NCBI GenBank assembly: GCA_036565345.1
Contig: DATCNH010000081.1
Coordinates: 2,118-66,117, forward strand
Source: Candidatus Limnocylindria bacterium
GTDB lineage: Bacteria; Chloroflexota; Limnocylindria; P2-11E
Direction: 5' to 3'
Length of the DNA: 64,000 nucleotides
Shown: positions 1 through 49,973 of the stretch, piece by piece
How positions within the stretch are numbered: position 1 is the first letter of the stretch
Layout of the letters: every line of letters starts with the position of its first letter
The notes under the pieces: generated by a model
Database searches by the model: none
What the model saw: the letters and a program-made list of their open reading frames with translations, nothing else
What the model was told of the DNA's origin: nothing
Made by a program: the position numbers and the translations under genes

Positions 1-106
1 AGGGTCCCGCTCCCGATGGCGATGCGGACCGCGTCCAGACGGCGCTCGACGGCGGTGTCGCCCCCGGCGCCGAAGAAGAGGATGAGCGCAGTGGTCGTGC
101 CGCTGG
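1..106 (-). CDS. hypothetical protein, N-terminal fragment (continues beyond window)
   Basis: GTG at 104-106 overlaps the TGA of the upstream gene (GTGA). The minus-strand frame reads MTSGTTTALILFFGAGGDTAVERRLDAVRIAIGSGT, which looks like a protein rather than a GC artefact. Only 35 codons are visible. Confidence 0.3.
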
Positions 107-1504
107 TCACGCCCTCGACGATAGGGGGCGCCGGGCGAGGATGCCCTCGACGCGGAGCAGGAGCGCGAACGCGACCAGCGTCAGGATGAGACCGGCGAGC
201 GCGCGCGGCCCCGCGCCGGGTACCGAGCCGAGGACGGCGAGCCACTGCGGATCGGTCCAATCGAAGAGCCGCTCCGGGTGGAAATTCACGTTCACCGGTA
301 CGGTGTCCCAGCGCTGGTCATAGGCCAGCGCGGCGGCATTGAAGAGCACCACCGACCAGGCCGCGCTGGCGGCGAACACCACCTTCGCGCCGGTGCGCGC
401 AAGCAGTCCCTGGCCGATCCCCCAGGCGAGCGCGGCAAAGAGCACCGGGGCCTGATCGTCCAGGAACCGGGGCCCGAAGACCCGGCCGCCCCACCACTCG
501 GTGTAGGTCGCGTACAGCGCGAGCGTGCCGACCCAGACGATTCCGAGCCCCCGGAGCCGGCGCGCGGCCGGCCCCGGGCGTCGCCAGGCGAGCACAAGGG
601 AGAGCAGCGCGAACGCCAGGTACGGCGCGTAGACGAGCAGCCCGCGGCTGGGCGACAGGAGCAGCCCGTACAGGCCGACCGGGAGCGGGGTATCGAATGG
701 CTTGGTCCCATAGCCCTGCTCGAACGGCTGGCCGAACGCGAGCTGGTCGTACGCCAGGAGCGGAAGCAACCCGACCGCGGCCCCACCGAGAGTGACGATG
801 ACGCGGCGTCCGGCGCCGATGCCGAATGCGACGAGCGTGCCGGTCTGGCGGACGACGCCGCCCAGACCGAGGATCAGGCCGGCGGTGAGCTCGCGGCGAA
901 GCGTGACCGGGCCGTCGTGCAGCACGAGCCAGAGGGCCAGCGCGACGAACAGGTGGACGCCGGCGTGCTGCCAGAGGGCCTGCGAGGCCACCGTGCGCAC
1001 GCTCGTGGCGAACGCATACAGAAGGGTGAGGCCGAGCGCCCAGCGGGCGCCCACGAAGCGGCCGAGGACCGACCAGAGGAGCAGCGTCGCGAGCGCCTCG
1101 ACGATCGCCGCCGCGAGATGCCCGAGGTACAGCAGCGCGGTCGCGTCGTCCGGAGCCACCCCCGCGAGGACCGCGGGGATCAGGACCGGCAGCGCGAGGA
1201 TCGCCATGCCGGGGGGAAAGATCGAGCAGACCCGGTCGTTCGGGCCGGGCGGTGGGGGTCCGCCGGCGCTGCGCGGGGCGGTGGGCGGCGCGGTCGCGGT
1301 CGAGGCCCCGCAGGCACGGAAGAAGTACGCCTCGCGATCGATGCGATCCGGACGCGCGTCCGCCGCCGTGCCGGTGAATTCGTCGTACGTGACGTCCCCG
1401 GTGCGAACGAGGGTCCAGGCGAACAGCGTGTTCGGCAGCACGTCGGGCGACCAGATGAGCTGCAGGTTCGCGAATGAGAGCACGACGAGCAGGACACCAC
1501 GCAT
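107..1504 (-). CDS. polytopic integral membrane protein, GT-C-type glycosyltransferase-like (DUF2029/PMT_2-like)
   Basis: About 12 predicted TM helices and aromatic/Pro-rich loops (GYGTKPF, YAPYLAF). ATG at 1502-1504 (MRGVLLVVLSF...) preceded by GGTGGGTG; an alternative ATG lies at 1207. The 673-aa ORF in the track is over-extended through comF in another frame. Confidence 0.55.
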   Translation of the reverse strand: MRGVLLVVLSFANLQLIWSPDVLPNTLFAWTLVRTGDVTYDEFTGTAADARPDRIDREAYFFRACGASTATAPPTAPRSAGGPPPPGPNDRVCSIFPPGMAILALPVLIPAVLAGVAPDDATALLYLGHLAAAIVEALATLLLWSVLGRFVGARWALGLTLLYAFATSVRTVASQALWQHAGVHLFVALALWLVLHDGPVTLRRELTAGLILGLGGVVRQTGTLVAFGIGAGRRVIVTLGGAAVGLLPLLAYDQLAFGQPFEQGYGTKPFDTPLPVGLYGLLLSPSRGLLVYAPYLAFALLSLVLAWRRPGPAARRLRGLGIVWVGTLALYATYTEWWGGRVFGPRFLDDQAPVLFAALAWGIGQGLLARTGAKVVFAASAAWSVVLFNAAALAYDQRWDTVPVNVNFHPERLFDWTDPQWLAVLGSVPGAGPRALAGLILTLVAFALLLRVEGILARRPLSSRA

Positions 1505-1598
1505 CACCCACCGCGCCGGTGGCACCGCCGGCAAGCCGTTCACGTGGCGCACCCTAGCGGGTTGACCGGTGCCTCCCGGCGTCGTTCGGCGCAGGGAC

Positions 1599-2210
1599 CT
1601 ACTCGTCGAGGGCAACGACGTACGCGCGCACCGCCCGGGCACCGCAGGCGCGTGCCGCGGCGGCCGCGTCGCGAAGCGTCGCCCCGGTGGTGGCGACATC
1701 GTCCACCAGCGCCACCCGGCCGCCACGAAGCGCGCCGGCCGTTCCGACGAACGCCGAGCACACATTCGCCGCGCGGCCCTGCCGGTCCAGCCGGACCTGC
1801 GCGGTCCCGCCACGGATCCGGTGGAGCGCGGCGACGAGCGGCACGGCGGTGTGCTGCGCGGCGACCGTCGCGAGGAGCATCGCCTGGTCGTAGCCGCGCT
1901 CCCGTCGCCGCGCGGGATGGAGACGCACCGGAACGAGCGCGTCGAGTTGTGCGCCACGGGCCAGATCGCCGGCGACCGCGGTCGCCACGAGCATCCCGAG
2001 CTCCTCGGTGAGCGCGGGCTGATCGCCGTACTTCGCGCTGTGGATCGCTTCGCGCAGTGGTCCCGCGTACGCCCCGCAGCCGGTGATCTCCAGTCCGCCG
2101 ACGGATCGCCGCAGCGGCTCCAGGCCATTGCGGCAGTCCAGGCAGAGCCAGGACCCGGGCAGGCCGCAGCCCGCGCAGCGCGGCGGAACGAGGAGATCGA
2201 GCGCGCTCAC
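1599..2210 (-). CDS. comF: ComF-family phosphoribosyltransferase (competence protein ComFC-like)
   Basis: N-terminal Cys4 cluster (PPRCAGCG...CLDC) plus a C-terminal PRTase motif (VALVDDVATTGATL). GTG start overlaps the upstream stop (GTGA at 2207-2210). Confidence 0.8.
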   Translation of the reverse strand: MSALDLLVPPRCAGCGLPGSWLCLDCRNGLEPLRRSVGGLEITGCGAYAGPLREAIHSAKYGDQPALTEELGMLVATAVAGDLARGAQLDALVPVRLHPARRRERGYDQAMLLATVAAQHTAVPLVAALHRIRGGTAQVRLDRQGRAANVCSAFVGTAGALRGGRVALVDDVATTGATLRDAAAAARACGARAVRAYVVALDE

Positions 2211-2548
2211 GGATCTTCGAAGACGAGGTCGTCCCCGGCTTGCGTGCCCGTCCGGGCGCAGGTCCCGGCAGCAAGCTCGATAACATCACGTGCGCCCCGG
2301 GCCGCCACCATCGGTACCCACGGACGGATATCTGGAGCGACCTTCAGGACCCGGCCGCCGCCGTCGACGAAGATCGCGTCGATCGCGAAGCGCATGAAGA
2401 ACATCGTGATCGACGAGGTCTTGGTGATCAGCAGCGCCTCCCCGTCGGCGAGCCTGCGGTGCAGGATGAGCCCGATGCCGCGGGAGAGGAAGGTGTCCGC
2501 GGTGCGGCAGTCGGTGGCGACGATCAGCCCCCGGGCACGGTTCCGCAG
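2207..2548 (-). CDS. DUF192-family protein (start codon uncertain, possibly CTG)
   Basis: Frame reads ...RGIGLILHRRLADGEALLITKTSSITMFFMRFAIDAIFVDGGGRVLKV...VIELAAGTCARTGTQAGDDLVFEDP, matching the DUF192 signature (RGLMgR...GMLF...FWM...PLDiiFiD...ElaaG). The homologous region extends 47 codons upstream of the first ATG (2404) up to an in-frame stop at 2579-2581, with no ATG/GTG/TTG. In-frame CTG codons lie at 2546-2548 and 2525-2527. Confidence 0.5.
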   Translation of the reverse strand: MRNRARGLIVATDCRTADTFLSRGIGLILHRRLADGEALLITKTSSITMFFMRFAIDAIFVDGGGRVLKVAPDIRPWVPMVAARGARDVIELAAGTCARTGTQAGDDLVFEDP

Positions 2549-2558
2549 GCGCCGGCCG

Positions 2559-3473
2559 TTAGAACTGACCGCAGCTGCTCATCGCCGAGAGCGCGGCGGG
2601 CGCCAGGATGACGATGAAGAGCGAGGGGAAGATGCAGCCGATCGTCGGGAGCATGATGAGGATCGGAGCCTTCGCTGCCTTCGCCTCCGCGCGCTGCCGG
2701 CGCTCGCCGCGCATCTGCTCCGACTGGATCCGGAGGACCTTCGACATCGAAACGCCGAGCTGATCGGCCTGGATGATCGCGGAGACGAAGTTCGAAAGCT
2801 CCTTCTGCTCGACCCGCTCGGTGATCCCCCGGAGCGCTTCCTGACGCGACTTCCCGACACGCTGCTCCGAGGCGGCCCGCTTGAATTCCTCGGACAGCGC
2901 GCCCTTGAGCTTCTCGGTGACCTTCACCAGCGCCGCGTCGAAGCCCAGACCGGCCTCCACCGAGATGGTGAGTAGGTCGAGCGCGTCCGGAAGGGACTCG
3001 AGGATCTCCGTCGAGCGCTTGCCGGCCTTGTTCCCCAGGTAGAAGTCCGGCGCCATGAATCCGAACACGAGGCCGCCGACCACGCCGCCGAGGGTCTGGA
3101 CCGGATCGCTCGTCATGAGGTTGACCAGAGCCGATACTCCGACCGCGCCCACGATCGCGGAGAACCCCTTCACGCCCAGGAAGAATTCGGTGCTCGTCGA
3201 CTCCATGCCGGCCCGCTTTAGCCGAAGGGTGAGGGCCCGAACCGTATTCGTCGGGTAGAACCGGCCGACGAGCCCCGAGAGCGCGCGGATGATCGGCTTG
3301 ATGGTGCGGTCGCCGATCGGACGGTTGAGCTCGAGCTCCTCGAGACTGCGTGGACGGACGGCGATCTGCTGCAGGCGAGCCTGCACCGGATCGAGCTGGC
3401 GCCCGAGCTGGAGGGAGACGAAGACCATGAGCACACCGGCGCTGGCAAGAACGGCGAAGATGACGGCTTCCAT
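2559..3473 (-). CDS. tadC: Flp pilus assembly platform protein TadC (T2SSF domain)
   Basis: TM-T2SSF-TM architecture with ...ISVEAGLGFDAALVKV... and a C-terminal APILIMLPTIGCIFPSLFIVILAP. ATG start at 3473. Confidence 0.85.
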   Translation of the reverse strand: MEAVIFAVLASAGVLMVFVSLQLGRQLDPVQARLQQIAVRPRSLEELELNRPIGDRTIKPIIRALSGLVGRFYPTNTVRALTLRLKRAGMESTSTEFFLGVKGFSAIVGAVGVSALVNLMTSDPVQTLGGVVGGLVFGFMAPDFYLGNKAGKRSTEILESLPDALDLLTISVEAGLGFDAALVKVTEKLKGALSEEFKRAASEQRVGKSRQEALRGITERVEQKELSNFVSAIIQADQLGVSMSKVLRIQSEQMRGERRQRAEAKAAKAPILIMLPTIGCIFPSLFIVILAPAALSAMSSCGQF

Positions 3474-3487
3474 CTGGATCGGCCTTC

Positions 3488-4462
3488 CTAGACCCTGATG
3501 TCCGTGATCTTGCGGATGGCGAGGAAGCCGATGGTCATCATGACCGCCCCGACGACGATGAGGATCCGGCCGATCGTCTGGGTGAACAGCGGCTCCATGA
3601 ATGCCGGGTTGATCGCGTTGAGCGCGGCGCCGAGGCCGATCGGGAGGAACGCCACCAAGTAGCCGGACACCCGTCCCTGGGCGGTGAGGGTGTTGATCTC
3701 GGCCTTGATCCGGACGCGCTCCCGGATCGTGAAGGCGATCGTGTCGAGGATCTCGGCGAGGTTCCCGCCGACCTGCTGCTGGATGCCGATCGCGGTCACC
3801 ATGAGATCGAGGTCATCGCTCTTGATGCGACGGACCAGGTTGTGCAGCGCCTCCTCCATGCCGAGGCCGAGGTTGACCTCGCGAACGACCCGGCCCATCT
3901 CCTCGCTCATCGGCGCCGCCGCCTCGCGAGACACGAGCTCGATGGACTGCAGAAAGCTCGATCCGGAGCGCAGCGCGTTCGAGAGAAGGCTCGTCGTGTC
4001 GGCCAGCTGCTTGTTGAACGCCTTGAGGCGGCCACTGATCCGGCGACCGACCCAGATGCGCGGCAGGAAGTAGCCGAGCACGAACCCGAAGACCCCGGTG
4101 AGCGGATCCTTGAACACGAAGAGCAGGAGGCCGAGGCCGAGGGAGAGACCGATGCGGATGTAGTAGTACTCCGCCACGCGGAGCTGGAGGCTGGCGCGCG
4201 CAAGATCGCGCTGCACCTTCGTGGCGAATCGCTTGTCCTCGACGTCCGAGGAGAGCGTCGCGAACGGGTCCACTTCCTTCCGGGACCGCTTCCGCTTTCG
4301 GCTGCGACCGTCTGGCTTGTCCTTCGCCTGCTCGGACCCGCCGGCGTAGCGTGCCATGCGCGACTCGACGCTCTGTGAGCCGCCGCGGAACAACGACGAC
4401 GCGCCCCAGAAGAAGAGGAAGATGCCCATGAACAGCCCCGCCGGGATGGCGTACTGGGTCAT
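3488..4462 (-). CDS. tadB: Flp pilus assembly platform protein TadB (T2SSF domain)
   Basis: MTQYAIPAGLFMGIFLFF... start at ATG 4460-4462, which overlaps the cpaF stop (ATGA). T2SSF motifs ...LSNALRSGSSFLQSIELV... and a C-terminal TM. The 430-aa track ORF is over-extended. Confidence 0.85.
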   Translation of the reverse strand: MTQYAIPAGLFMGIFLFFWGASSLFRGGSQSVESRMARYAGGSEQAKDKPDGRSRKRKRSRKEVDPFATLSSDVEDKRFATKVQRDLARASLQLRVAEYYYIRIGLSLGLGLLLFVFKDPLTGVFGFVLGYFLPRIWVGRRISGRLKAFNKQLADTTSLLSNALRSGSSFLQSIELVSREAAAPMSEEMGRVVREVNLGLGMEEALHNLVRRIKSDDLDLMVTAIGIQQQVGGNLAEILDTIAFTIRERVRIKAEINTLTAQGRVSGYLVAFLPIGLGAALNAINPAFMEPLFTQTIGRILIVVGAVMMTIGFLAIRKITDIRV

Positions 4463-5856
4463 CGGAGCCCCTGGCTCATGTCGCCGAAGACCCCCTGTGG
4501 CAGGCGGATGCCGGCGGCCTCGAACTTCTCGGAGAACTTGGGCCGGATGCCGGTCGGCCGAAGCCGGCCGACGACCTTCCCGTCGACGTAGCCGGTCTGC
4601 TCGAAGACGAAGACGTCCTGGAGGATGATCGCGTCGCCCTCCATGCCCTGCACCTCGGTGACATGCGTCACCTTGCGCGACCCATCCTTGAGGCGCGAGA
4701 TCTGCACGATGACATCGAGCGCGCTCGCGATCTGTTCCTTGATCGCCCGCGACGGGAGGTCGACGCCGGCCATGAGGCACATCGTCTCGATACGGGCCAG
4801 CATGTCGCGAGGTGAGTTCGCGTGGCCGGTGGACAGTGAGCCGTCGTGACCGGTGTTCATCGCCTGGAGCATCGAGAGGGCCTCGCCACCACGGATCTCA
4901 CCGACCACGATCCGCTCGGGGCGCATCCGGAGGGCGTTCTTCACCAGATCCATGATCGTGACCGCGCCCTTGCCCTCGATATTCGCGGCGCGCGACTCGA
5001 GCCGGACGACGTGGTCCTGCACGAGCCGCAGTTCCGCAGCGTCCTCGATGGTGATGATCCGCTCATCCTCGGGAATGAATCCGGACATGATGTTCAAGAG
5101 CGTGGTCTTTCCTGAACCGGTGCCCCCGGAGACGAACATGTTGAGTCGGGCTTCGACGCACGCCCGGAGGAACTCCATCATCTCCTCGGTCGCGGTGCCG
5201 AACTTGATGTAGTCCTGGACTTGGATCCGGTACTTGGGGAACTTCCGGATCGTGACCACCGGACCGTTCAGCGCGAGCGGCGGGATGATGATGTTCACCC
5301 GCGAGCCGTCCGGGAGACGCGCATCCTCGTAGGGCTTCGACTCGTCGACCCGGCGGCCGATCGGAGCGATGATCCGTTCGATCACTCGCATGACATGGTC
5401 GTCGCTCTGGAAGGTCACATCGGACAGCTGGAGCTTTCCTTTCCGCTCGATGTAGACCCGGAACGGCCCGTTCACCATGACCTCGGTGATCGAGTCATCG
5501 TTTAGGAGGGGCTGGATCGGCCCGAAGCCAAGGATCTCGTCGACGATCTGGTCGAGCATCCGCTGGCGCTCGACCCGGGTGATGACCACGCCTTCCTCGT
5601 CGAGGTAGCGATTGAACATCTCTTCGATGTTCGAGCGGACCGCCTTCACGTCGGACAGGTCGAGGCGCGGATCGAGATTGTTGATGATCTTCGTCTGCAG
5701 CTGGACCCGTAGGTCGCGGTTGCCGTCCCGGGCCGGGGCGACGCTCTGGGTGAGGGGGCCGTTGTCATGCGGTGGCCGCCCGTCGGCCGAGGGTGGGGCG
5801 GCAAGCTCGGGAGTCCCGACCGGCCGGGCGCCTTCGATGCGCTTCAGAAGTGACAT
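4459..5856 (-). CDS. cpaF: Flp pilus assembly secretion ATPase CpaF/TadA
   Basis: Walker A (GGTGSGKTT), Asp box, Walker B and His box (VGEIRGGEA...NTGHDGSLSTGHAN). ATG at 5854-5856 (MSLLKRIEG...) preceded by AAGGG. Confidence 0.9.
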   Translation of the reverse strand: MSLLKRIEGARPVGTPELAAPPSADGRPPHDNGPLTQSVAPARDGNRDLRVQLQTKIINNLDPRLDLSDVKAVRSNIEEMFNRYLDEEGVVITRVERQRMLDQIVDEILGFGPIQPLLNDDSITEVMVNGPFRVYIERKGKLQLSDVTFQSDDHVMRVIERIIAPIGRRVDESKPYEDARLPDGSRVNIIIPPLALNGPVVTIRKFPKYRIQVQDYIKFGTATEEMMEFLRACVEARLNMFVSGGTGSGKTTLLNIMSGFIPEDERIITIEDAAELRLVQDHVVRLESRAANIEGKGAVTIMDLVKNALRMRPERIVVGEIRGGEALSMLQAMNTGHDGSLSTGHANSPRDMLARIETMCLMAGVDLPSRAIKEQIASALDVIVQISRLKDGSRKVTHVTEVQGMEGDAIILQDVFVFEQTGYVDGKVVGRLRPTGIRPKFSEKFEAAGIRLPQGVFGDMSQGLR

Positions 5857-5994
5857 CTCTACCCTTAACCCAACCTTCCAGCGCACGTTATCCGGTGCGG
5901 GGGCCGCCCGCAGGACCGGTCCCACGACCGTACGGTCTCGCCGGATGGACCGAAAGGGGTCCTTTCGGGCTATTTTTCGGCCGCGAAGGGCCTG

Positions 5995-7254
5995 TTACCG
6001 GGAGAACAGCCGCCGGCCGGCCCGTGCGACCGGTTTTTGTGGCACCGCACCGTCGGCGGCCGGCTCGCCGGTCCCCGAGAGCTTCCCGGCCAGGGTGAAG
6101 ATGTCTTTCGCGACCTGGCTGTCGCGATGGCTGATGACGAACGGCACCCCCCGGTTCACCGCCAGGACAAGCGCGCGGCCGTCGGAGACGATGGTGTGGG
6201 GCATCTTCCGCCCCAGGCTGCCCTCGACGTCCGAAACCTTGATCCCGCCAGAGCTGTCGTTCCGATTGGCGACGAGCTGGACCTTGGTCTCGTCATAGCC
6301 GAGCTTTTCGACGATCTCCATGAAGACCCGAACGTTCTTCAGGCTGGTGATCTCGAGGGTCATAAGGGTCAGGATGACGTCCGCGACATCAAGCATCGTG
6401 AGGACCTGCTCCTCGAAGGACGGCCAGGTGTCGACCACCACGTAGGCGTAGCTCTCGCGAAGCGTCTCGAGGACCTTCTTCATGTTGGCGCCGGTGATGA
6501 GCTCTTTGGCCTCCGGGGTCGGCGGCGCGAGCAGGACCTTGATCCCGGTCGAGTGCGATACGAGAACGCTCTCCATGACCTCGGCGTCCACCTGGTCGAA
6601 CGCTCCGACCAGGTCGGCGATCGTCTTCGCCTTCGGGCTCATGTTCAAGATGACCGCAATATCACCGAACGGGAGGCTTCCATCGACCAGGCAGACCGAC
6701 TGCCCGGTCAGCTGATGCAGCGCGACGGCGAGATTCGTCGAGATCGTAGTGCGGCCGACGCCGCCCTTCGGCGAGAAGAACGTAATGATCTTCCCTCGGA
6801 CCGAACTGCCGGCCGCCGGTGGCGGAGCGGCGACCTGCGGGATCGGCGCCGCCTGCTCGTACCGTGCCCGCTTCACCTTCTCGATCTCGTGGACATGGCG
6901 GATGGCGTTCACCAGCTCATCCGCGGAGAAAGGCTTCACCAAGAACTCGCGCGCGCCGGCGAGCATCGAACGGCGCAGATAGTCCTGCTCGTTCTGGACG
7001 CTCATCATGATGATCGGCGAGCCGGGAACGGTGTTCGCAATGATCTCGGTAGCGGTGATCCCGTCCATCCCGGGCATGTTGATGTCCATCAGGATGACGT
7101 CCGGGCGCAGGCGCTTCGCGAGCTCGACCGCCTGCTGGCCGCCGTCGGCCGACCCTGCGACGACCATGTCCGTCTCAAAGCCGATGAGCTTGGCGAGGTT
7201 CTCGCGCGTCTCGGCGATGTCATCGACGACGAGAATGCGGATCGGATCAGCCAT
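5995..7254 (-). CDS. cpaE: CpaE/TadZ-type ATPase with an N-terminal response-regulator receiver domain
   Basis: N-terminal REC (ILVVDDIAETRENL...DVILMDINMPGMDG) with the acidic pocket intact, followed by a MinD/ParA deviant Walker A (SPKGGVGRTTIS). Confidence 0.85.
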   Translation of the reverse strand: MADPIRILVVDDIAETRENLAKLIGFETDMVVAGSADGGQQAVELAKRLRPDVILMDINMPGMDGITATEIIANTVPGSPIIMMSVQNEQDYLRRSMLAGAREFLVKPFSADELVNAIRHVHEIEKVKRARYEQAAPIPQVAAPPPAAGSSVRGKIITFFSPKGGVGRTTISTNLAVALHQLTGQSVCLVDGSLPFGDIAVILNMSPKAKTIADLVGAFDQVDAEVMESVLVSHSTGIKVLLAPPTPEAKELITGANMKKVLETLRESYAYVVVDTWPSFEEQVLTMLDVADVILTLMTLEITSLKNVRVFMEIVEKLGYDETKVQLVANRNDSSGGIKVSDVEGSLGRKMPHTIVSDGRALVLAVNRGVPFVISHRDSQVAKDIFTLAGKLSGTGEPAADGAVPQKPVARAGRRLFSR

Positions 7255-7263
7255 CGGTCACGC

Positions 7264-7779
7264 TCATGATATGGGGCGGAGCTGGAAGACCAGCGCGATC
7301 AGCGCGCCGAGCCCAAGAGCCACGCCGTAGGGGATCCAAGTCTTCATCAGGGCGTGCATCGTATTGGGGGGATCCCCTGGCGCCGGCCGGCTCAGGCGGC
7401 GTAGGACGATGAAGACGATGGCGATGATGCCGCCGGTGAGCGCACCCCAGACCGCGGCCTGGAGCAGGAACGCGGTCCCCTTGAGGGCGCCCACGGCCAT
7501 GAGGAGCTTTCCGTCCCCGGCCTTCAGGCCACCTGCGGCGTAGAAGGGGTACGAGACCAAGAACCCGACGACGAGCCCGGCCAGATGGTCGAGCAGGCCC
7601 CCAGCGAGCGGACCGCCAGGAAAGCCCGCCGGCCCGGCGAAGCTCTCAGCGAGACCGAACAGGATCCCGACGAGCATCGCCGGATAGGTCGCGACGTTCG
7701 GGATGCGCCGGAACCGCCAATCGGTCCAGATGACCGTCAGGACGAAGCCGACCAGGACCGCATCCTCGGCGATCTCCAG
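7264..7779 (-). CDS. cpaA: prepilin peptidase CpaA/TadV (A24 family), likely non-canonical start
   Basis: The track ORF (7264-7677, MLVGILFGL...) is the conserved core. The same frame continues upstream as ...LEIAEDAVLVGFVLTVIWTDWRFRRIPNVATYPA and contains the family hallmark D-x-R-x-RRIPN plus the first TM helix. There is no ATG/GTG/TTG up to the in-frame stop at 7882-7884. The CTG at 7777-7779 would give MEIAEDAVLVGF... Confidence 0.7.
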   Translation of the reverse strand: MEIAEDAVLVGFVLTVIWTDWRFRRIPNVATYPAMLVGILFGLAESFAGPAGFPGGPLAGGLLDHLAGLVVGFLVSYPFYAAGGLKAGDGKLLMAVGALKGTAFLLQAAVWGALTGGIIAIVFIVLRRLSRPAPGDPPNTMHALMKTWIPYGVALGLGALIALVFQLRPIS

Positions 7780-7868
7780 CGCGTCGATGAGCCACCCCTC
7801 TCCGCTGATGAAAAAGGCGGCGCCCGCCGACTGCGGGCGCCGCCTGGACCGTATCCGGATCGGACCGA

Positions 7869-8027
7869 CTAGGTGAGGTTGTTACCGATGTTGCTGAAGA
7901 TGTTCTGGATCTGCCCGCGAAGGAAGATCATCGCAACGATGACCGCGATCGCGATGACGGCGATGATGAGTGCATATTCGACGAGTCCCTGACCGTCGTC
8001 GTCGCGGAAGAAGCGCTGAATGTCCAT
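7869..8027 (-). CDS. flp: Flp-family type IVb pilin precursor
   Basis: MDIQRFFRDDDGQGLVEYALIIAVIAIAVIVAMIF... carries the Flp motif G/QGLVEYAL followed by a hydrophobic helix. ATG at 8025-8027 is preceded by a perfect AAGGAG. Confidence 0.85.
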   Translation of the reverse strand: MDIQRFFRDDDGQGLVEYALIIAVIAIAVIVAMIFLRGQIQNIFSNIGNNLT

Positions 8028-8100
8028 TGGCTGTCTCCTTTCTTCGGTCCTGCTGGCCCTCACTGTCAGATACGGACGAGCAACCGAACAGTAGGAAAAC
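8028..8100 (-). promoter_or_regulatory. putative flp promoter/5'UTR region
   Basis: 73-nt less GC-rich spacer between the upstream hairpin and the strong flp RBS. No clean -35/-10 pair could be assigned by eye. Confidence 0.25.
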
Positions 8101-8104
8101 GGTA

Positions 8105-8122
8105 CTCCCCCGTTCGGGGGAC
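8105..8122 (-). terminator. GC stem-loop (CCCCC-GAAC-GGGGG) followed by a GTTTTCC tract; putative attenuator/terminator between the fused tadB/C gene and flp
   Basis: 5-bp all-GC stem with a tetraloop directly downstream of the 8158 stop. A U-containing tract follows on the coding (minus) strand. Confidence 0.35.
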
Positions 8123-8157
8123 GACCGGCATCAGGATAGGCCGCGGCGGTCTGCCGT

Positions 8158-9231
8158 CTAGGGGCCGCTGACCGAGAGGAGCGGCGGGCCGAGGAAGACG
8201 ATCAGGAGCGCCGGGAGGACGCAGAAGGTGAGCGGGAAGAGGAGCAGGACCGGCAGGCGGCGGGCGCGCGTCTCGGCCCGCCGACGCTCGCTCTCCCGGA
8301 GCGCGTCGGCCTGCGTGACCAGCAGCTCGGCGAGGGGGGAGCCGAAGCGTGAGGCGGCATCCACGAGCGCGGCGATCCGAGCCTCCTGCGGGCCGGCCGC
8401 GGCGAAGGCGGCGAACGCGAGACGGGGTGGCCGGCCCAGCCGGAGATCGGCGAGCAGCCGACGAGCCTCCGGGAGCCGGGCGACACGCGAGGCCCGCTCC
8501 ACGAGGGCCGCAAGCGCCTGCTCGAAGGTCAGTCCCGCCTCCAGACCCACGACGACCGCATCGACGAGCGACGCGAGCTCCGGCGAGCCCGCCGGCGGAC
8601 GGGTCAACCGCCGCAGCCACAGCGCACCGATGACTTCGAGGGCGATCGCCGCCACGAGCAGCCCACGGCCCCGCCCGGTGAAGATCGCGATGTAGTCCGG
8701 CGAGAGGATCGCGAAGGCGATCGCCCCGAGCGGCGCCAGACCGAGGAGCACCGCCGCCGACATGCGGCTCTGCGCGGTGAGCGCACTCCGCTCGTCGTCA
8801 AGGGCGAGGCGGCCACGCAGCAGTCGTGCGACCCGGCCGAGACTACGTCCGATCGGCCCGCCGGTGCGGGCGAAGGCGACCAGCACCACCGCGAACGGCG
8901 CCACATCCTCCTCGGGAATGACTCCGGAGTAGCTCGCGAGGGCGCGTCCCACCGGGTCTCCGATCGATAGGGTCGCCGCCGCACGCGCCGTCGCGCGTCC
9001 GAGCTCGCGAGGAAGCGCCGCGGCCACCTCGGAAAAGGCCCGCTCCAACGACAGTCCGGCGCCGAGGGCCGCACCGACCGCATCGATGAGGCCGGGGAAC
9101 GCGGCCCGCGCCTGCCGATCGGCCCCGCGCAGACCGGCGAGCCGGCGCCGGATGGCGTGCACCCGCGCGGCCGGCAGCAGGCCGCTCACGACGAGGATGC
9201 CGCCGCCCGCCAGGAGGGCCGCGGTCAGCAC
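8158..9231 (-). CDS. Tad platform protein with two T2SSF domains (fused TadB/TadC-like)
   Basis: N-terminal TM, T2SSF-like block 1 (...GAGLSLERAFSEVAAALPRELG...), central TM pair, T2SSF block 2 (...VVGLEAGLTFEQALAALV...RARRLPVLLLFPLTFCVLPALLIVFLGPP). GTG start at 9231. Confidence 0.7.
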   Translation of the reverse strand: MLTAALLAGGGILVVSGLLPAARVHAIRRRLAGLRGADRQARAAFPGLIDAVGAALGAGLSLERAFSEVAAALPRELGRATARAAATLSIGDPVGRALASYSGVIPEEDVAPFAVVLVAFARTGGPIGRSLGRVARLLRGRLALDDERSALTAQSRMSAAVLLGLAPLGAIAFAILSPDYIAIFTGRGRGLLVAAIALEVIGALWLRRLTRPPAGSPELASLVDAVVVGLEAGLTFEQALAALVERASRVARLPEARRLLADLRLGRPPRLAFAAFAAAGPQEARIAALVDAASRFGSPLAELLVTQADALRESERRRAETRARRLPVLLLFPLTFCVLPALLIVFLGPPLLSVSGP

Positions 9232-10337
9232 GCGATCGGCACGGGGCGCAGGACGTGATCGGCCGCCTCGGGATCCACCTCCACGATCTCGACGATCCGG
9301 CGACGGCCATCGGGGCCGCGCTCCTGGTGGACCACCAGCTCGATGCCCCGATGGATCTGCTCGCGGATCACCGCGATCGGCAGGTCCACGCCTCCCATGA
9401 GGGCCATCGTCTCCAGCCGGAGGAGTGCGTGATACGCGCTGTTCGCGTGCGCGGTGGTCAGCGAGCCGCGATGCCCGGTGTTCATCGCCTGGAGCATGTC
9501 GAGCGCTTCGCCTCCCCGGACCTCGCCCACGATGATCCGGTCAGGCCGCATCCGAAGCGCGTTCCGGAGGAGCGTGCGCACGTCGATCGCACCGGTGCCC
9601 TCCACGCTCGCGGGGCGCGTCTCGAGCGCGACCACGTTCGCCTGCGGCAAACGCAGCTCGGCGGCATCCTCGATGGTGACCACCCGCTCTTCGGGAGCGA
9701 TGCCGTGGGCCAGGGCATTCAGGGTGGTCGTCTTGCCGCTCGAGGTCCCGCCCGAAATGAGGATGCTCCGGCGCGCGGCGACCGCGGCCACGAGGAACGC
9801 GATCGTCTGGGCGGGGGCCGTCCCGGCACGGACGAGATCGTCCGGTCCGAGCGCACGCGGACCGAACCGCCGGATGGTGAGGATGGGTCCGGCGATCGCC
9901 ACAGGCGCGATGACCGCGTGGACCCGCGAGCCATCCGGAAGTCGGGCATCGACCAGCGGGTTCGCCAGGTCGATCCGTCGGCCGAGCGGCGCGACGAGCC
10001 GCTCGATGAGGACCAGGATCTCCTCAGGATCGCGAAACCGGATCGGGACCGGCTCGATCCGTCCGGCGCGCTCCACCCAGACCCCGCGAGTGCCATTCAC
10101 CATGATCTCGGTCACCCGCTCGTCGCGAAGGAGCGGGGCGAGCTCACCCAGTCCGAAAAAACGATCGTGGAGCCACCGCTCGACTGCGGCGAGCTCGACC
10201 GACGACAGGGCGACACGCTCGGCCGCCGCGCTCTCCCGGAGGATGATCCCAAGCTGATCGGCCCGTGGCCGCCCCTGCTCGCTCTCCCGCAACCGCGCCG
10301 CGACCGCGCGCTCGAGGCGGTCGCGCATGGCGGTCAT
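9225..10337 (-). CDS. second CpaF/TadA-family secretion ATPase
   Basis: Walker A GGTSSGKTTTLNAL, Asp box and His box (EVRGGEALDMLQAMNTGHRGSLTTAHANS). ATG at 10335-10337 overlaps the upstream stop (ATGA). Confidence 0.9.
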   Translation of the reverse strand: MTAMRDRLERAVAARLRESEQGRPRADQLGIILRESAAAERVALSSVELAAVERWLHDRFFGLGELAPLLRDERVTEIMVNGTRGVWVERAGRIEPVPIRFRDPEEILVLIERLVAPLGRRIDLANPLVDARLPDGSRVHAVIAPVAIAGPILTIRRFGPRALGPDDLVRAGTAPAQTIAFLVAAVAARRSILISGGTSSGKTTTLNALAHGIAPEERVVTIEDAAELRLPQANVVALETRPASVEGTGAIDVRTLLRNALRMRPDRIIVGEVRGGEALDMLQAMNTGHRGSLTTAHANSAYHALLRLETMALMGGVDLPIAVIREQIHRGIELVVHQERGPDGRRRIVEIVEVDPEAADHVLRPVPIAC

Positions 10338-11293
10338 GACGCGTCGATCGTCAGGAGCTCGGCGAGCTCGTCGTATGCCGCCCCGAGCGCGCCGCCGACC
10401 GGTCCGCGCGCGAGCAGCCCGTCAGCGACGGCCCGCTCATCCCGGGGAAGCACCCGGAACGCGCTCTCGATCGGGCCCTGCGCACCGATCCACCACACCG
10501 TTTCGGGCAGCCCCGCAGCGTCCCGGACCGCGCGCGACGCGGGATCGTCGTAGCCGAGAGCGAGCACGCGGTCGGCGACCAGGGCCGCGGCGCGGGCCAC
10601 CGGATCCGGCGCCGGCGGGGCATCGACGATGGCGATGTCCACCAGGTCGCGGGCGGCCGCCAGCACCGCGGCGGCAAGCTCGAGCGACGGCATCAACGGC
10701 GGACCGCCGATGATCGACAACCGCTTGCCGGCCTCGGTCGCCAGCACGGCCAGATGCTCGGCCCGGAGCTCGTCGGTGAGCGGCGCGACCTCCAGCCATG
10801 AGCGTGAAGCCGCCCCCAGCCACCAGCCGAGCGCGCCGGAGCCGGTCAGGTCGATGGCCAGCACGCTCCGCGACGCCGCGAGACGCCGAGCGAGGTTGGC
10901 CACCAGCAGCGTGCGGCCAACGCCCCCGCGACCGGAGGTCACGACGATCACACGGGTCGCGCCGCGGGCCGAACGCGGCGTGACGGCGGCGATGAGCGGT
11001 CCGAGCACCGCCGGATCGGTCGAGATCGCCGTGGCGACCGCGGCCCCTGACGCCGCCAGCAGGTCGCGCTGCGCCTCGGTCACCACGGCGACGCGCGGCA
11101 ACGTGGCCGGAAGCGACGCCGCGGCCGCCGCCGCGCCGCGGTCCCGAAGATCGACAAGGACGAGGTGTGGAGCGCCATCGCGATCGAGGTCGAGAACGCG
11201 TGCGGCTTCGTCGAGCGCCGATCCGCAGACCGCCGCCGCGATCCGCGGGGTCCGGACCGGCCGCCTGACCGCCCGATCGATCGGGGGCATCAT
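10334..11293 (-). CDS. second CpaE/TadZ-like ParA/MinD-family ATPase with a degenerate N-terminal domain
   Basis: Deviant Walker A VTSGRGGVGRTLLVANLA. Start assigned to ATG 11291-11293, which overlaps the cpaB-like stop (ATGATG); the track ORF starts at a GTG at 11374. Confidence 0.65.
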   Translation of the reverse strand: MMPPIDRAVRRPVRTPRIAAAVCGSALDEAARVLDLDRDGAPHLVLVDLRDRGAAAAAASLPATLPRVAVVTEAQRDLLAASGAAVATAISTDPAVLGPLIAAVTPRSARGATRVIVVTSGRGGVGRTLLVANLARRLAASRSVLAIDLTGSGALGWWLGAASRSWLEVAPLTDELRAEHLAVLATEAGKRLSIIGGPPLMPSLELAAAVLAAARDLVDIAIVDAPPAPDPVARAAALVADRVLALGYDDPASRAVRDAAGLPETVWWIGAQGPIESAFRVLPRDERAVADGLLARGPVGGALGAAYDELAELLTIDAS

Positions 11294-11712
11294 CGGGTCG
11301 AACGGAGCAATGGAACGAGCAAGTGACCGGAGGCCCGCGCCAGCGCGATCGCGGTGGCGTCCTCGGCCACGCACCCGACGACGAGCCCGCGTTCGTCCAT
11401 CGAGACCACGAGCAGGTCGAAGGCGATCGCCGTGGCCGACGCACGGTCACCGGTACGCAGCGCCAGCAGGTCGAGGCGGTCGCCCGGCCGAGCGCCGACG
11501 AGCGATGTCGCCAGCCACGCGGCGGGCAGCATGAGCGCCCAGGTGTCCGGGGTAAGCGTCTCGGCGACCGAGGCGCTGCGGGTCACTCCCGCATCCGTCG
11601 AGACGGGACCGAGCAGCACCGCGGCGGCAAGGACCAGCGCCCCCGCGACCGCCAACGCCGCACGTGGAGGGACGCGGCGGCGGCGGGCCAGGACGCTCAG
11701 CGATGGCAGCAT
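11290..11712 (-). CDS. CpaB/RcpC-like small membrane-anchored pilus assembly protein (tentative)
   Basis: N-terminal TM (AALAVAGALVLAAAVLLG), then ...GARPGDRLDLLALRTGD...LVVGCVAEDATAIALARASGHLLVPLL, resembling the C-terminal part of CpaB proteins. Position in the operon fits. Confidence 0.4.
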   Translation of the reverse strand: MLPSLSVLARRRRVPPRAALAVAGALVLAAAVLLGPVSTDAGVTRSASVAETLTPDTWALMLPAAWLATSLVGARPGDRLDLLALRTGDRASATAIAFDLLVVSMDERGLVVGCVAEDATAIALARASGHLLVPLLRSTR

Positions 11713-12149
11713 GCGGCTCCGATCGCGACGCGCTGGCGGTGACGATCCACCGTCAGAATCACCTCGATGGCCGGACCAGCATCGCGGATCGACAGGTCGG
11801 TCGGTGCTCCGGCACGGTTCTCGGCGGCGATCTCGCGCGCCGCGCCCAGCGCGGCCTCAGCGACGGCCGGATCCGCGACCAAGGCAGTGATCTCCGTGCG
11901 CCGAGCGAGCGAGCGGGGTCGCCCGCTCGCGTCCCGAAGGCCGAGGATGAGGGCCACCTGGGCATCGGCGAGCGCCGCTCCCGCCGCCTCCGCCGCGGCC
12001 TCAGCGGCACGACGGGCGTGCGCGTCCGAGAGGATGCGCTCCTGCGCATCCCGCAGGCCGACGATCGCCGCGGCGGCGATCCCGATGCCGAGGACCGCGA
12101 TCAGGAGCGCCTGCCCACCGTCGTCGGCACGGGCGGTCAAGGGGTCCAC
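11697..12149 (-). CDS. TadE/TadF-like pseudopilin (tentative)
   Basis: N-terminal DDGGQALLIAVLGIGIAAAAIVGL hydrophobic segment and no Flp G/XXXXEY motif. Lies between the cpaB-like gene and tadE. Confidence 0.4.
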   Translation of the reverse strand: MDPLTARADDGGQALLIAVLGIGIAAAAIVGLRDAQERILSDAHARRAAEAAAEAAGAALADAQVALILGLRDASGRPRSLARRTEITALVADPAVAEAALGAAREIAAENRAGAPTDLSIRDAGPAIEVILTVDRHRQRVAIGAACCHR

Positions 12150-12526
12150 TCGATCCGTCGGGCGGCATCGCCGCGGACCACGAGCTGCGGCAGGCCGATG
12201 AGCCCGAGGGGCGCCGCGATCGTGTAACGGAGGCTGACCCGCAGCAGGGCGCCCCGCGGCGCAGGACCGCGCTCCGCGACACCCGGGACCACCGCGATCG
12301 CTACCTTTGCCGGGTCGAGCGGCGCGACGGCGGCGGCGACCGTCGAGCGGATGAGCTCGTCGTCATTCGTGAGCGCGCCGATGCGTGCTCCTTCGGCCGC
12401 ACCCTGCTCCAGGGCGAGGCGCGCGATCCCAAGCTCGGCGATCGCGGTGATCGCGAACGCGAGAATGAGCAGCACCGGGAGAACGAGGGCGAGCTCCACG
12501 AGCGCCTGACCCCGTTGGTCCTTCAT
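12137..12526 (-). CDS. tadE: TadE-like pseudopilin
   Basis: Classic TadE N-terminus MKDQRGQALVELALVLPVLLILAFAITA. ATG 12524-12526 overlaps the hydrolase stop (ATGA). Confidence 0.75.
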   Translation of the reverse strand: MKDQRGQALVELALVLPVLLILAFAITAIAELGIARLALEQGAAEGARIGALTNDDELIRSTVAAAVAPLDPAKVAIAVVPGVAERGPAPRGALLRVSLRYTIAAPLGLIGLPQLVVRGDAARRIEWTP

Positions 12527-13656
12527 GGCCGCGCCAGTCCTGCGTTGCGGGCATTCGCCCACGTACGCACGAAGGGCAGCCGGCGGCGTCGAAGCGCCCA
12601 GCATGCGGCGATCAGGCAGACCGCGGCGAGCCCGAGGGCCCAGGGCATGACGGCGTCGGCGATCCGGCTCGTACGCGCCGCCTGCGCGATCTCGACACCA
12701 CGCATATCCGATGGGGCGGCGCGGCGCGCGACGGTGGTCGTGACCAGGTCGAGGGCGCGAGGATCACTGGTGATCGCACCGTGGCCGTCGAGCCACTCGC
12801 CGGCGCCGCGCGGAAGCAGAACCCGCGCGTCGACCCCGGGAACGGCCGCATCGCGCTCGATGACCGCGACGTCGCTCGCCATGCGCAGGTCCAAGCGCGC
12901 GATACCGGCGGCCGTCGCACCGAGACGAAGCCGCGCGAGGTCCTCGGTCGCCGGACCGGCGATGTCGCGGCCCTGCACGATCGAGGCGATCGCGCGAGCT
13001 TCCGGCCGAGCATCGCCCGCCATTTGTGCGACGACCTGCGCATAGCGGGCGGCGGTGGAGCCGTCGTGCGGAGCGGCGAGCGCGATATAGGTCCGCACGC
13101 CATCGCTCGCCGAGAGGCCGCGGGCGAGGGCGGTGTCGACCACCGCGCCACCCATGGAGTGCGCGATGAGGTGGACGGTGCCGTACCGCGTCGCCAGCTC
13201 GCGCACTTCGGCGGTCAGCGCGTCGGCGTTGTCGGACAGGCGGCCGACGGTGTCGTACGGGTGCTCCGGATCGGCGCCAAAGCGGCGGACCTCGTAACGC
13301 GGGTCGGCTCGCAGGCGGCCGATGAGCGCGTCCCAGGTCCGGTCGGAGCTCGAGGATCCGATGCCCGCGACCAGCAGGACCACCTCGCGACCGCTCCGGC
13401 CTGGAGCGACCTTCGGCGCGAGCTCCGGCAGATCGAGCGGACGAAGGGTCGTTCGGGACGGACGGACCGCCGCGCTGTCGACGTGCGGCGGTCCGTCATC
13501 TCCCGCGGCCGGGAACGCGCCTGCAGCCGGAAGGAGGGCCACGGCCACGCAGATCGCGCGAAGAAGTGTCCCGACCACGCCCCGCACTTCATTCCGGATC
13601 GCCCGCCCGCCATAGAGGACCGTGGGCCGGTACCCGGGTACCCAGAGCAGCCGCAA
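12523..13656 (-). CDS. secreted alpha/beta-hydrolase (lipase/esterase-like) with a C-terminal membrane anchor
   Basis: GxSxG nucleophile elbow (IAHSMGG), downstream acid/His regions and an N-terminal hydrophobic signal (VGTLLRAICVAVALLPAAGA). C-terminal TM AVMPWALGLAAVCLIAACWALRRRR. First gene of the second tad module. Confidence 0.7.
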   Translation of the reverse strand: MRLLWVPGYRPTVLYGGRAIRNEVRGVVGTLLRAICVAVALLPAAGAFPAAGDDGPPHVDSAAVRPSRTTLRPLDLPELAPKVAPGRSGREVVLLVAGIGSSSSDRTWDALIGRLRADPRYEVRRFGADPEHPYDTVGRLSDNADALTAEVRELATRYGTVHLIAHSMGGAVVDTALARGLSASDGVRTYIALAAPHDGSTAARYAQVVAQMAGDARPEARAIASIVQGRDIAGPATEDLARLRLGATAAGIARLDLRMASDVAVIERDAAVPGVDARVLLPRGAGEWLDGHGAITSDPRALDLVTTTVARRAAPSDMRGVEIAQAARTSRIADAVMPWALGLAAVCLIAACWALRRRRLPFVRTWANARNAGLARP

Positions 13657-13727: not shown

Positions 13728-14063
13728 ATGAAGATCTCATTGCTCGATGTACTCGCTCACGATCGAACACCGCTCCGAGCGCCACCCTCATGGATCAACG
13801 CGGAGATCGCCACCGTGAACGATCAGGTGGTGCTCCATGGCGGCGCCGGCAAGCTCGACGGCGCATGGCACCGCCAGGACAGCGACGAGTTCCTGCTGGT
13901 CCTTCGAGGCTCGCTGATCGTCGAATTCGGGCTCGGACCAGTGACCGCCGGGCCGGGGGAGGGAATCCTCATCTCCTCGGGGGAACGGCACCGCGCCACG
14001 GTCCCGGAGGACTGCCTGCTCTTATCGGTCGAAGGGATCGGGATGACGCGCGTCGAAGACTGA
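13728..14063 (+). CDS. cupin-domain protein
   Basis: MKISLLDVL... with cupin motifs (VLHGGAG...EFLLVLRGSLIVEF...PGEGILISSGERHRA). The track ORF is over-extended at the 5' end. Confidence 0.65.
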   Translation: MKISLLDVLAHDRTPLRAPPSWINAEIATVNDQVVLHGGAGKLDGAWHRQDSDEFLLVLRGSLIVEFGLGPVTAGPGEGILISSGERHRATVPEDCLLLSVEGIGMTRVED

Positions 14064-14107
14064 TGGCAATGCTAGGGTGCGCCCACGAGGTGGTTGGAGG
14101 GAATCCG

Positions 14108-15676: not shown

Positions 15677-15681
15677 GGGAG

Positions 15682-15710
15682 GGCGGCGGGAAGGCCATCT
15701 TCCCGCCGCC
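15682..15710 (+). terminator. perfect 12-bp stem-loop (GGCGGCGGGAAG-GCCAT-CTTCCCGCCGCC) between the SBP and permease genes
   Basis: Seen directly, 6 nt after the TAA of the SBP gene. Typical intra-operon attenuator or mRNA-stabiliser position in ABC importer operons. Confidence 0.5.
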
Positions 15711-15719
15711 GTTCGCTCG

Positions 15720-17520: not shown

Positions 17521-17984
17521 GGATCTCCCGCGCCGGCCCGGAGCACCTCGGGGCGATCCGCGAGCTCCTCGTCGCCTCCCCCCTCCTCCGGCGCTACGGG
17601 ACGACGAAGCGGGGCGCACGCGCGAGCCTGGAGGAGGCGCTCGGCGCAGGGGACACCCTCGTCGTCGCGCTGGAAGGGATCGAGGTGCTGGGTGTCGCCT
17701 GGGTCATTGCGACCCGAGCGCTGGATCGGTCGGCGTACCTTCGGCTGCTGCTCGTGTCCGAGGGCAGCCGCTCGCAGGGCATCGGCGGACGGCTCGTGGC
17801 CGACGTCGAGCGCAGAGCGCGTGCCGCGGGCTGCCGCCACCTCCTCCTCCTTGTCACAACGACCAACCGGCGCGCTCGGGCCTTCTATGTCCGGCATGGC
17901 TACCGACACTTCGCCGACCTCCCGGCGTTCGTTCGTCCCGGGATATCGGAGTCGCTCTACCAGAAGCGCCTGTCCGGGCGCTGA
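17517..17984 (+). CDS. GNAT family N-acetyltransferase
   Basis: Acetyl-CoA binding motif (SRSQGIGGRLVADVERRARAAG). ATG overlaps the dppC-like stop (ATGA). Confidence 0.7.
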   Translation: MRISRAGPEHLGAIRELLVASPLLRRYGTTKRGARASLEEALGAGDTLVVALEGIEVLGVAWVIATRALDRSAYLRLLLVSEGSRSQGIGGRLVADVERRARAAGCRHLLLLVTTTNRRARAFYVRHGYRHFADLPAFVRPGISESLYQKRLSGR

Positions 17985-18040
17985 GTCGCGGACCGCGCCC
18001 GGAGCGACCGCGCCGGGCCGCCACTCGGCGGGTCTCGGCG

Positions 18041-48696: not shown

Positions 48697-48770
48697 CGGC
48701 GGCCCGCGCGGCCGCAACTGCCCAAAAGGGCCAACGCGGCCAAGGCGGCCCGAAAAGGACGGTATCCGGT

Positions 48771-49970: not shown

Positions 49971-49973
49971 CCG

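Follow-up and report, generated by a model that had tools for sequence, protein, structure and literature searches.

Two neighbouring operons for Tad (type IVc) pilus proteins lie in a 64-kb stretch of DNA from a Candidatus Limnocylindria bacterium (hereafter the window, meaning the whole 64,000 nucleotides (nt) analysed), and from their gene content we read them as one bipartite Tad system whose halves have grown mutually dependent, a reading to which we give a probability of roughly one half. All Tad genes described here are on the minus strand. Pfam and NCBIfam scans placed operon B at 13656→8158 and operon A at 8027→2559, followed by a DUF192 gene and a ComF-family gene. Operon B is made up, in order, of an α/β-hydrolase, TadE, a pilin-like protein lacking Glu5, a short RcpC/CpaB, a TadZ-like ParA, CpaF2 and a TadB–TadC fusion; operon A of Flp, a terminator, TadV, a TadZ with a receiver domain (REC-TadZ), CpaF1, TadB and TadC. 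With the same even odds, and by analogy with a studied system compared below, the two operons would cooperate on one Flp filament, operon B priming it with its minor pilins and CpaB and operon A polymerising it under phospho-control. The window matches contigs of Candidatus Limnocylindria (Chloroflexota) metagenome-assembled genomes (MAGs) from soil and permafrost metagenomes, for example GCA_036732345.1. The genes of operon B, of operon A and of the two positions that follow it are listed here.

12523-13656, minus strand: α/β-hydrolase (PF07819/PF12697), PGAP1/lipase-like, nucleophile elbow HSMGG.
12137-12526, minus strand: TadE minor pilin, 129 aa, PF07811 (E = 1.5e-7), leader G/QALVEL.
11697-12149, minus strand: pilin-like protein in the TadF/TadG slot, 150 aa, leader-like motif G/QALL, no Glu5.
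11290-11712, minus strand: short CpaB/RcpC-like protein, 140 aa, an N-terminal transmembrane segment and one RcpC domain, no SAF domain.
10334-11293, minus strand: TadZ-like ParA/MinD protein, weak AAA_31/CbiA/ParA matches, P-loop RGGVGRT.
9225-10337, minus strand: CpaF2/TadA2, 370 aa, a minimal secretion ATPase, PF00437 (E = 1e-58), Walker A GGTSSGKTT.
8158-9231, minus strand: fused platform protein TadB–TadC, PF00482 matched in two stretches (two T2SSF domains).
7869-8027, minus strand: Flp major pilin, 52 aa, PF04964 (E = 6e-8), cleavage site G/QGLVEY.
7264-7788, minus strand: TadV/CpaA prepilin peptidase, 174 aa, PF01478, start codon ATC, ribosome-binding site (RBS) GGAGAGGGG.
5995-7254, minus strand: CpaE1 (REC-TadZ), PF00072 (E = 5e-30) and AAA_31, a canonical phospho-receiver domain.
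4459-5856, minus strand: CpaF1/TadA1, 465 aa, full-length Tad ATPase, PF00437 (E = 1e-66).
3488-4462, minus strand: TadB, one T2SSF domain (Pfam).
2559-3473, minus strand: TadC, one T2SSF domain (Pfam).
2207-2550, minus strand: DUF192 protein, PF02643.
1599-2210, minus strand: ComF/GntX-family phosphoribosyltransferase, TIGR00201 (E = 6e-19) and GntX (E = 1.4e-20), both under the curated cut-offs.

The set comprises Flp, an A24 peptidase, TadA/CpaF, the TadB and TadC platform of operon A and TadZ/CpaE, by which it belongs to the Tad/Flp (type IVc) systems. A first-pass annotation of the window had already listed two CpaF ATPases at 4459-5856 and 9225-10337, two CpaE/TadZ proteins (one with an intact and one with a degenerate receiver), separate tadB and tadC beside a fused platform gene, a cpaB-like gene, and only one flp and one cpaA, and all of these were recovered. 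Both ATPases match the solved CpaF of Caulobacter crescentus, CpaF1 over residues 82-488 (E = 5e-131) and CpaF2 over residues 112-441 only (E = 5e-86). The count of two or three TadE-like pseudopilins in the first-pass annotation comes down to one bona fide TadE (12137-12526), as the protein at 11697-12149 has no family or fold match and no Glu5. The α/β-hydrolase at 12523-13656, the first gene of operon B, had been left out. The single A24 peptidase stands as well, with a corrected start: the gene begins at the ATC at 7788 and encodes 174 aa, rather than the 137-aa open reading frame (ORF) that begins with ATG.

This ATC (7786-7788) lies 8 nt downstream of GGAGAGGGG. Among 32 scorable loci the tadV start codon is ATC in 18, ATA in 12 and ATG in two. 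ATG also stands at this codon in L007, which comes on top of that count, and it does so in L014 (related loci are numbered with an L); in-frame stops occur just upstream in other relatives. The conserved N-terminal 37 aa hold the first catalytic Asp, which automatic gene calls drop by shortening TadV to 137 aa (ATG at 7677); the 174-aa protein has both catalytic Asp (TDWR…IPN and GDGK) and no methyltransferase domain.

The gene set encoded by single-operon relatives is reached only when the two operons are taken together. No second Flp-like ORF was found by regular expression or phmmer in six frames of the entire 64 kb, and there is no second tadV in the window; tblastn likewise returned a single flp per related locus. 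Distant relatives, at 35-57% identity in a search anchored on REC-TadZ, have one operon and one motor, in the order flp–tadV–tadE–tadG–cpaB–RECtadZ–cpaF–tadB–tadC–DUF192–comF. Their CpaF is 54-67% identical to CpaF1, which leads us to treat operon A as orthologous to it. Only 9 nt separate the end of cpaA from cpaE1 in the window: operon A has lost the tadE–tadG–cpaB block. Operon B keeps the order tadE–X–cpaB–tadZ–tadA–tadB–tadC and contains no flp or tadV. The gaps are thus reciprocal. Two such relatives illustrate the single operon: L164 has a histidine kinase, a LuxR-type regulator, two flp, TadV, TadE, a TadG-like protein, CpaB (SAF and RcpC), REC-TadZ, CpaF, TadB and TadC, and L102 has three flp, CpaB, REC-TadZ, CpaF, TadB, TadC, DUF192 and ComF. 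They differ from the window in a CpaB with both SAF and RcpC domains, in a long TadG (310 aa), and often in several flp and an adjacent pair of histidine kinase and LuxR-type regulator. The TadG-like protein of L164 occupies the slot of the pilin-like protein, and no recognisable copy of TadD or TadG was seen in the window system.

The pair of operons is conserved in about 70 Limnocylindria MAG loci. A search anchored on the fused-platform alignment gave 73 loci, nearly all titled as MAGs of Limnocylindria or Chloroflexota (five bear the names of other taxa). Operon A lies downstream, with the same order of both operons, in 64 of the 73 (tblastn synteny); among the other nine, eight have less than 1.6 kb of contig after tadBC, and L011, with 4.9 kb, gave no flp or cpaA match. 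Approached from the other side, by a second search of metagenome contigs anchored on REC-TadZ, operon B was present in all six loci of Limnocylindria type whose contigs extend upstream. Between tadBC and flp lie anywhere from 110 bp to 7.5 kb (median 624 bp), and in relatives this spacer has genes for DUF72, RDD and RIO-like kinase proteins, an MFS transporter and an ABC ATPase, some of them in the opposite orientation. The first gene of operon A is flp in every case, and an upstream motif (described below) travels with it. Because of this variable spacer with its unrelated genes, the flp-linked motif and the position of flp, we regard the locus as two transcription units kept side by side. 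The single co-directional block first proposed for it does not hold, since the halves lie as much as 7.5 kb apart in relatives, with unrelated genes of either orientation between them.

Given the reciprocal gaps, and as in the tad-1/tad-2 clusters of Micrococcus luteus, cooperation on one Flp filament is the most likely arrangement. Operon A would supply Flp, TadV and a phospho-regulated motor (REC-TadZ, full-length CpaF1, TadB and TadC), and operon B would supply TadE, the pilin-like protein, the short CpaB/RcpC, the membrane-anchored hydrolase and a second, streamlined motor made of the TadZ-like protein with its altered P-loop, the core-only CpaF2 and the fused TadB–TadC. In the sequence of steps we propose, TadV from operon A would cleave both Flp and the operon-B TadE, the operon-B machine would build a minor-pilin priming complex or one spanning the cell wall, and the operon-A machine would polymerise Flp onto it. 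A high ratio of pilin to machinery would result from the terminator that follows flp together with the weak start codon (ATC) of tadV, and the filament may serve DNA uptake, as suggested by the conserved ComF gene at the 3′ end. A stronger form can be put forward tentatively from the sequences: an obligate two-motor machine arising by reciprocal loss, in which a hydrolase-aided B motor might build the TadE/pilin-like priming complex through the wall and the A motor polymerise Flp, the whole acting as a competence pilus.

The linkage to ComF extends beyond the two-operon loci. In Limnocylindria, wherever the contig runs far enough past it, tadC is followed by a DUF192 gene and a ComF-family gene. 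Of about 16 distant loci that extend beyond tadC, at least 12 show the tadC–DUF192–ComF linkage in some form, among them L102, L110 and L146 with both genes and L120, L123, L128, L133, L137 and L144 with ComF alone. This hints that this Tad clade is tied to DNA uptake. The ComF-family gene of the window overlaps DUF192 by 4 nt. The DUF192 protein has a conserved N-terminal extension (about 50 codons, 2405-2550) in which the window offers no ATG, GTG or TTG, so its true start is uncertain, being either a non-canonical codon (possibly CTG) or the product of a truncated gene call.

Several observations weigh against cooperation of the two operons. In L082 (JBBPIQ010000001.1, a 1.18-Mb contig) operon B has been lost and operon A is intact; a kinase, a subtilase and uncharacterised genes replace it at 1-10450, leaving only cpaF2 fragments and the C-terminal half of tadBC. 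Conversely, L045 (JACDAF010000024.1, 1-4300) has an intact tadBC, with everything from flp to tadC deleted and a truncated tadV left behind. Together these two loci imply that each operon may persist alone, unless the two are systems in decay or errors of assembly. Elsewhere in the genome there could be another flp, tadV or tadE. The pilin-like protein has no family match (Pfam, 39 orthologs) or fold match (Foldseek against the PDB), and ComF-family genes occur too in bacteria not known to be competent.

The L082 locus, with operon A kept in the absence of B, is also what would be expected of two independent machines sharing only TadV, operon A making Flp pili and operon B a short TadE-based pseudopilus that acts as a cell-wall or secretion device with the hydrolase. 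The complete motor of operon B fits this, as do the unrelated genes that part the two operons in relatives and the hydrolase itself, a conserved and translationally coupled first gene. It encodes a signal-like N-terminus and a C-terminal membrane anchor (topology read from sequence), overlaps tadE by 4 nt and stands at the same position in relatives with 32-73% identity. A protein with its own signal-like N-terminus and anchor, however, needs no dedicated secretion machine. Independence would also leave operon A without all the minor pilins and the CpaB that single-operon relatives encode, and the close adjacency of A and B in about 70 species without explanation; in M. luteus, moreover, the flp-less cluster is needed for the Flp pilus (PMC4322843). 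We consider independent machines unlikely.

Neighbouring genes of operon B overlap by 4-16 nt. The TadE cleavage motif G/XXXXE[FL] is present in 45 of 46 orthologs and tadE has a dN/dS of 0.09-0.13. The pilin-like protein was modelled with AlphaFold2 (AF2; pLDDT 90.9) as a long N-terminal helix with a small α/β head; it had no Pfam match in 39 orthologs and no significant PDB match by Foldseek, and none of 44 orthologs has Glu at +5. The RcpC family PF16976 was matched by 35 of 39 orthologs of the short CpaB (best E = 9e-9), the window copy itself falling under the detection threshold. For the operon-B TadZ, the AF2 model (pLDDT 90.2) has a degenerate, four-strand receiver-like N-domain, and Foldseek returned ParA/MinD chains, the sole two-domain PDB match being TadZ of Eubacterium rectale (3fkq). 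Alignment to CpaE1 by hhalign covered the ATPase domain alone, so the receiver-like fold is seen in the AF2 model only; the inputs to AF2 were alignments built from database hits. An altered P-loop, RGGxGR[TS], is kept in almost all of 58 operon-B TadZ sequences.

The fused platform protein is TadB-like in its N-terminal half and TadC-like in its C-terminal half (hhalign 95.8% and 98.1%). It has more than 400 homologs, every named one from Limnocylindria or Chloroflexota. Two-domain platforms of archaea, taken as the ancestral state by Denise et al., have the reverse domain order (PMC6668835). The fusion is therefore secondary, as its order is that of adjacent tadB and tadC genes, the reverse of the archaeal one.

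Operon A appears, from sequence comparison, to be under stronger constraint than operon B at both the protein and the synonymous level. Flp orthologs are 83-100% identical and 51 of 52 have the G/XXXXEY motif. CpaF1 orthologs across the class are 83-95% identical. In CpaE1, which has the P-loop KGGVGRT, the receiver residues D11, D12, D57, S85 and K107 are invariant in 18 orthologs. Operon-B genes have a GC content of 71-76% and dS of 0.63-1.25, against 64-66% and 0.48-0.76 for cpaE1, cpaF1, tadB and tadC. The operons as wholes differ in the same direction (65% GC in A, 73% in B), whereas GC at third codon positions (GC3) is equal in both at 0.82-0.93. Since GC3 is the same, the gap reflects amino-acid composition and not foreign origin, and horizontal acquisition of the lower-GC operon A is ruled out on the same ground.

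Faster evolution of operon B, where parA2 orthologs are mostly 45-55% identical against 83-89% for cpaF1, an apparent richness of its proteins in amino acids with GC-rich codons (given a GC of 71-76% at unchanged GC3) and its loss in L082 might suggest a functionless, decaying remnant of a duplicated or acquired tad cluster. This is highly improbable and largely refuted. ORFs are intact in about 60 species, and dN/dS is 0.08-0.31, a mark of purifying selection, for each of the six operon-B genes that could be paired across three species pairs (the hydrolase could not). Catalytic motif, altered P-loop and overlapping start and stop codons are all preserved. We also rejected the narrower possibility that operon B or its fused tadBC is a pseudogene, as ORFs are intact, motifs conserved and dN/dS low throughout; for the fused gene, about which the first-pass annotation had left this door open, dN/dS is 0.13-0.16.

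Each operon has its own motor. An intact Walker A motif was seen in every one of 42 CpaF1 sequences and, with a single exception, in the 60 CpaF2 sequences. The two CpaF are old paralogs on the evidence of their sequences. They are 48% identical, and in a neighbour-joining (NJ) tree of 159 CpaF cores, a phylogeny of the kind that had been proposed as a check, they are not sisters, their last common node spanning 151 sequences and CpaF1 coming only 126th in closeness to CpaF2; the identity and the deep split exclude a recent duplication of cpaF. Among 1.8 billion cluster representatives searched, CpaF2 has many relatives at 50-63% identity. Its nearest relative is a Solirubrobacterales CpaF at whose locus tadB and tadC are separate.

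As both ATPases look catalytically competent from their Walker A motifs, and as one TadZ receiver is intact while the other is degenerate with a conserved, altered P-loop, the motors could be alternative or redundant drives for one Flp pilus, one switched by REC-TadZ phosphorylation and the other constitutive or differently localised through the degenerate TadZ. The loss of each operon alone in single lineages is in keeping with this. Such a scheme does not, however, account for the confinement of minor pilins and CpaB to motor B and of flp and tadV to motor A, and redundant copies should often vanish, yet the pair is kept almost everywhere. We rate alternative motors as quite unlikely.

A division of labour between extension and retraction, as offered in the first-pass annotation, would recall PilB and PilT of type IVa pili, where two paralogous secretion ATPases likewise act with one pilin. 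In Caulobacter one CpaF powers both extension and retraction (PMC6920026, PMC11300603), and loss of its NTD0 region lowers retraction (PMC11300603). CpaF2 lacks the corresponding region (it covers residues 112-441 where CpaF1 covers 82-488), which could be taken in favour of such a division. PilT, however, is marked by PilT-specific sequence and comes without a dedicated platform or positioning protein, whereas both ATPases of the window are of the CpaF family and each is paired with a platform and a TadZ of its own; retraction ATPases normally work on the platform of the extension ATPase. CpaF2 is not PilT-like, scoring 56 bits against TIGR01420 (pilT_fam) where the cut-off is 319. One bifunctional ATPase suffices in Tad systems (PMC6920026), and in M. 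luteus the knock-out of any gene of either cluster, tadA included, abolishes surface Flp assembly and not retraction alone (PMC4322843). An extension/retraction split thus looks very improbable. The broader proposal that two assemblies act on one pilin has become more plausible through the reciprocal gaps and the M. luteus precedent.

Two sequence elements flank flp.

8089-8121, minus strand: flp upstream element, a GC hairpin at 8106-8121 (6-bp) followed by the motif GTAC-N4-TTCCTA (8089-8105).
7815-7845, minus strand: intrinsic terminator directly after flp, a 13-bp stem with 12 G·C pairs, then TTTTT.

The terminator after flp, rather than the upstream hairpin, is on sequence grounds the strongest expression signal (z = -3.9; 0 of 200 shuffles fold as well). 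Lying between flp and tadV, it probably acts as an attenuator, fixing how much pilin is made relative to the machinery. Only 13 of 56 relatives have a similar hairpin with a T-run. An RBS and an upstream hairpin had earlier been taken as signs of high flp expression: both are present (AAGGAG at 8035-8040; hairpin at 8106-8121), but the hairpin does not serve as an expression marker, being strong only in the window's own subclade. It lies just 5′ of the motif, and of 49 unique sequences only 24 have it with ΔG ≤ -5.

The motif is the better conserved part of the upstream element. In the form G[GT]AC-N4-TTCC[TC]A, 56 of 61 loci have it at a distance of 60-92 nt upstream of the flp start codon (ATG), irrespective of the upstream gene, and many show it as a direct repeat, TCCTAGTA…TCCTAGTT. 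Such a motif may bind a regulator or act as an unusual promoter. A σ54 promoter was considered and rejected, as most loci lack the GG and GC dinucleotides of the σ54 consensus and have a spacing that is too short by one base; the motif does not fit the σ70 consensus either, and no σ70-like site turned up. We likewise rejected the hairpin as a terminator of operon B, because the element stays with flp behind other genes and the hairpin is weak or absent in half of the relatives. Elsewhere in operon A, an 8-bp hairpin at 5950-5968, in the 138-nt gap between cpaE1 and cpaF1, has no T-run on the coding (minus) strand.

Upstream of operon B, a σ54-dependent response regulator of the NtrC type is encoded at 21212-22849 (minus strand). 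Relatives keep it within a few genes of operon B on the upstream side (regulator–dodecin–MerR–MurT–GatD–hydrolase), and no cognate kinase is nearby. In the window a peptide ABC transporter (SBP_bac_5 and two permeases), an acetyltransferase and a cupin occupy 13790-18200, between MurT/GatD and operon B; as these genes are absent at that position in L007 and L008, we regard them as a lineage-specific insertion. Farther along, a reverse transcriptase of the group II intron type (RVT_1 and GIIM; about 37300-38830, minus strand) lies between the genes for a polyprenyl synthase and a class A penicillin-binding protein. At about 48080-53620 (plus strand) are genes for a CDP-alcohol phosphatidyltransferase, an inositol-1-phosphate synthase, two Lip_A_acyltrans proteins, a PHP protein and a GT4 glycosyltransferase, a cluster that by sequence resembles the actinobacterial phosphatidylinositol-mannoside pathway, notable for a Chloroflexota envelope.

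The window system shares with the tad genes of Aggregatibacter actinomycetemcomitans and the cpa genes of C. crescentus a Flp with G/XXXXEY, a TadV without a methyltransferase domain, TadZ, TadA, TadB/TadC, TadE and CpaB/RcpC, and differs from these diderm systems in having two motors and no secretin RcpA/CpaC. No secretin or further type IV pilus gene was found by Pfam among the genes called on identical contigs that span the window at about 1-21 and 25-64 kb; of the 4 kb or so in between, one long ORF was scanned, that of the NtrC-type regulator. The ±10-kb flanks of L007 and L008 also contained no secretin. The first-pass annotation had linked the lack of a secretin to a monoderm envelope, and its absence from the scanned 60 kb or so of the 64 fits such an envelope and does not disqualify the system from Tad membership. 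Chloroflexota are generally regarded as a monoderm phylum, and the secretin RcpA/CpaC is needed only in diderm Tad systems.

Tad pili are usually described as single-locus, single-ATPase machines. To our knowledge M. luteus is the one studied exception, and the need for both of its clusters has never been explained. Limnocylindria loci provide about 70 natural replicates of a two-motor Tad system in which the parts are split more cleanly than in M. luteus, pilin and peptidase on one side and minor pilins and CpaB on the other. As the single-operon ancestral state is still seen in relatives, the evolutionary route is visible. The locus would offer a testable model with one motor for priming and another for polymerisation, and an example of how reciprocal loss may lock paralogous operons together; there is also a hint that ComF-linked Tad pili are DNA-uptake organelles in an abundant, uncultured soil lineage. 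Full-text literature searches on Limnocylindria pili and on Chloroflexi Tad gave no description of such a system, which appears to be undescribed so far.

Its closest counterpart is that of M. luteus, where two tad clusters (tad-1 and tad-2), one with a fused tadB/C, go with one flp gene and one tadV gene, the latter unlinked (Angelov et al. 2015, PMC4322843). Knock-outs in either cluster, tadA included, abolish surface Flp and transformation, for which the single flp and tadV are needed as well. The authors suggested that the TadE/TadF products of the cluster without flp serve as obligatory minor components, or build a structure that is basal or spans the wall (PMC4322843). Both systems lack a secretin and have two TadA-platform sets, one fused TadB/C, a single flp and a single tadV (counted, for Limnocylindria, within the 64-kb window and, for flp, in related loci), and in both the minor pilins reside in the flp-less cluster. 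In M. luteus, a Gram-positive bacterium, the clusters are 1.2 Mb apart, tadV is unlinked, TadZ is missing and the cluster with the fused TadB/C carries flp. In the Chloroflexota window the clusters are adjacent, each has a TadZ (one with a true receiver domain), and the fused platform keeps company with the minor pilins, CpaB/RcpC and the α/β-hydrolase. The Limnocylindria arrangement is therefore a system of the M. luteus kind with its parts distributed differently, rather than a new kind of machine.

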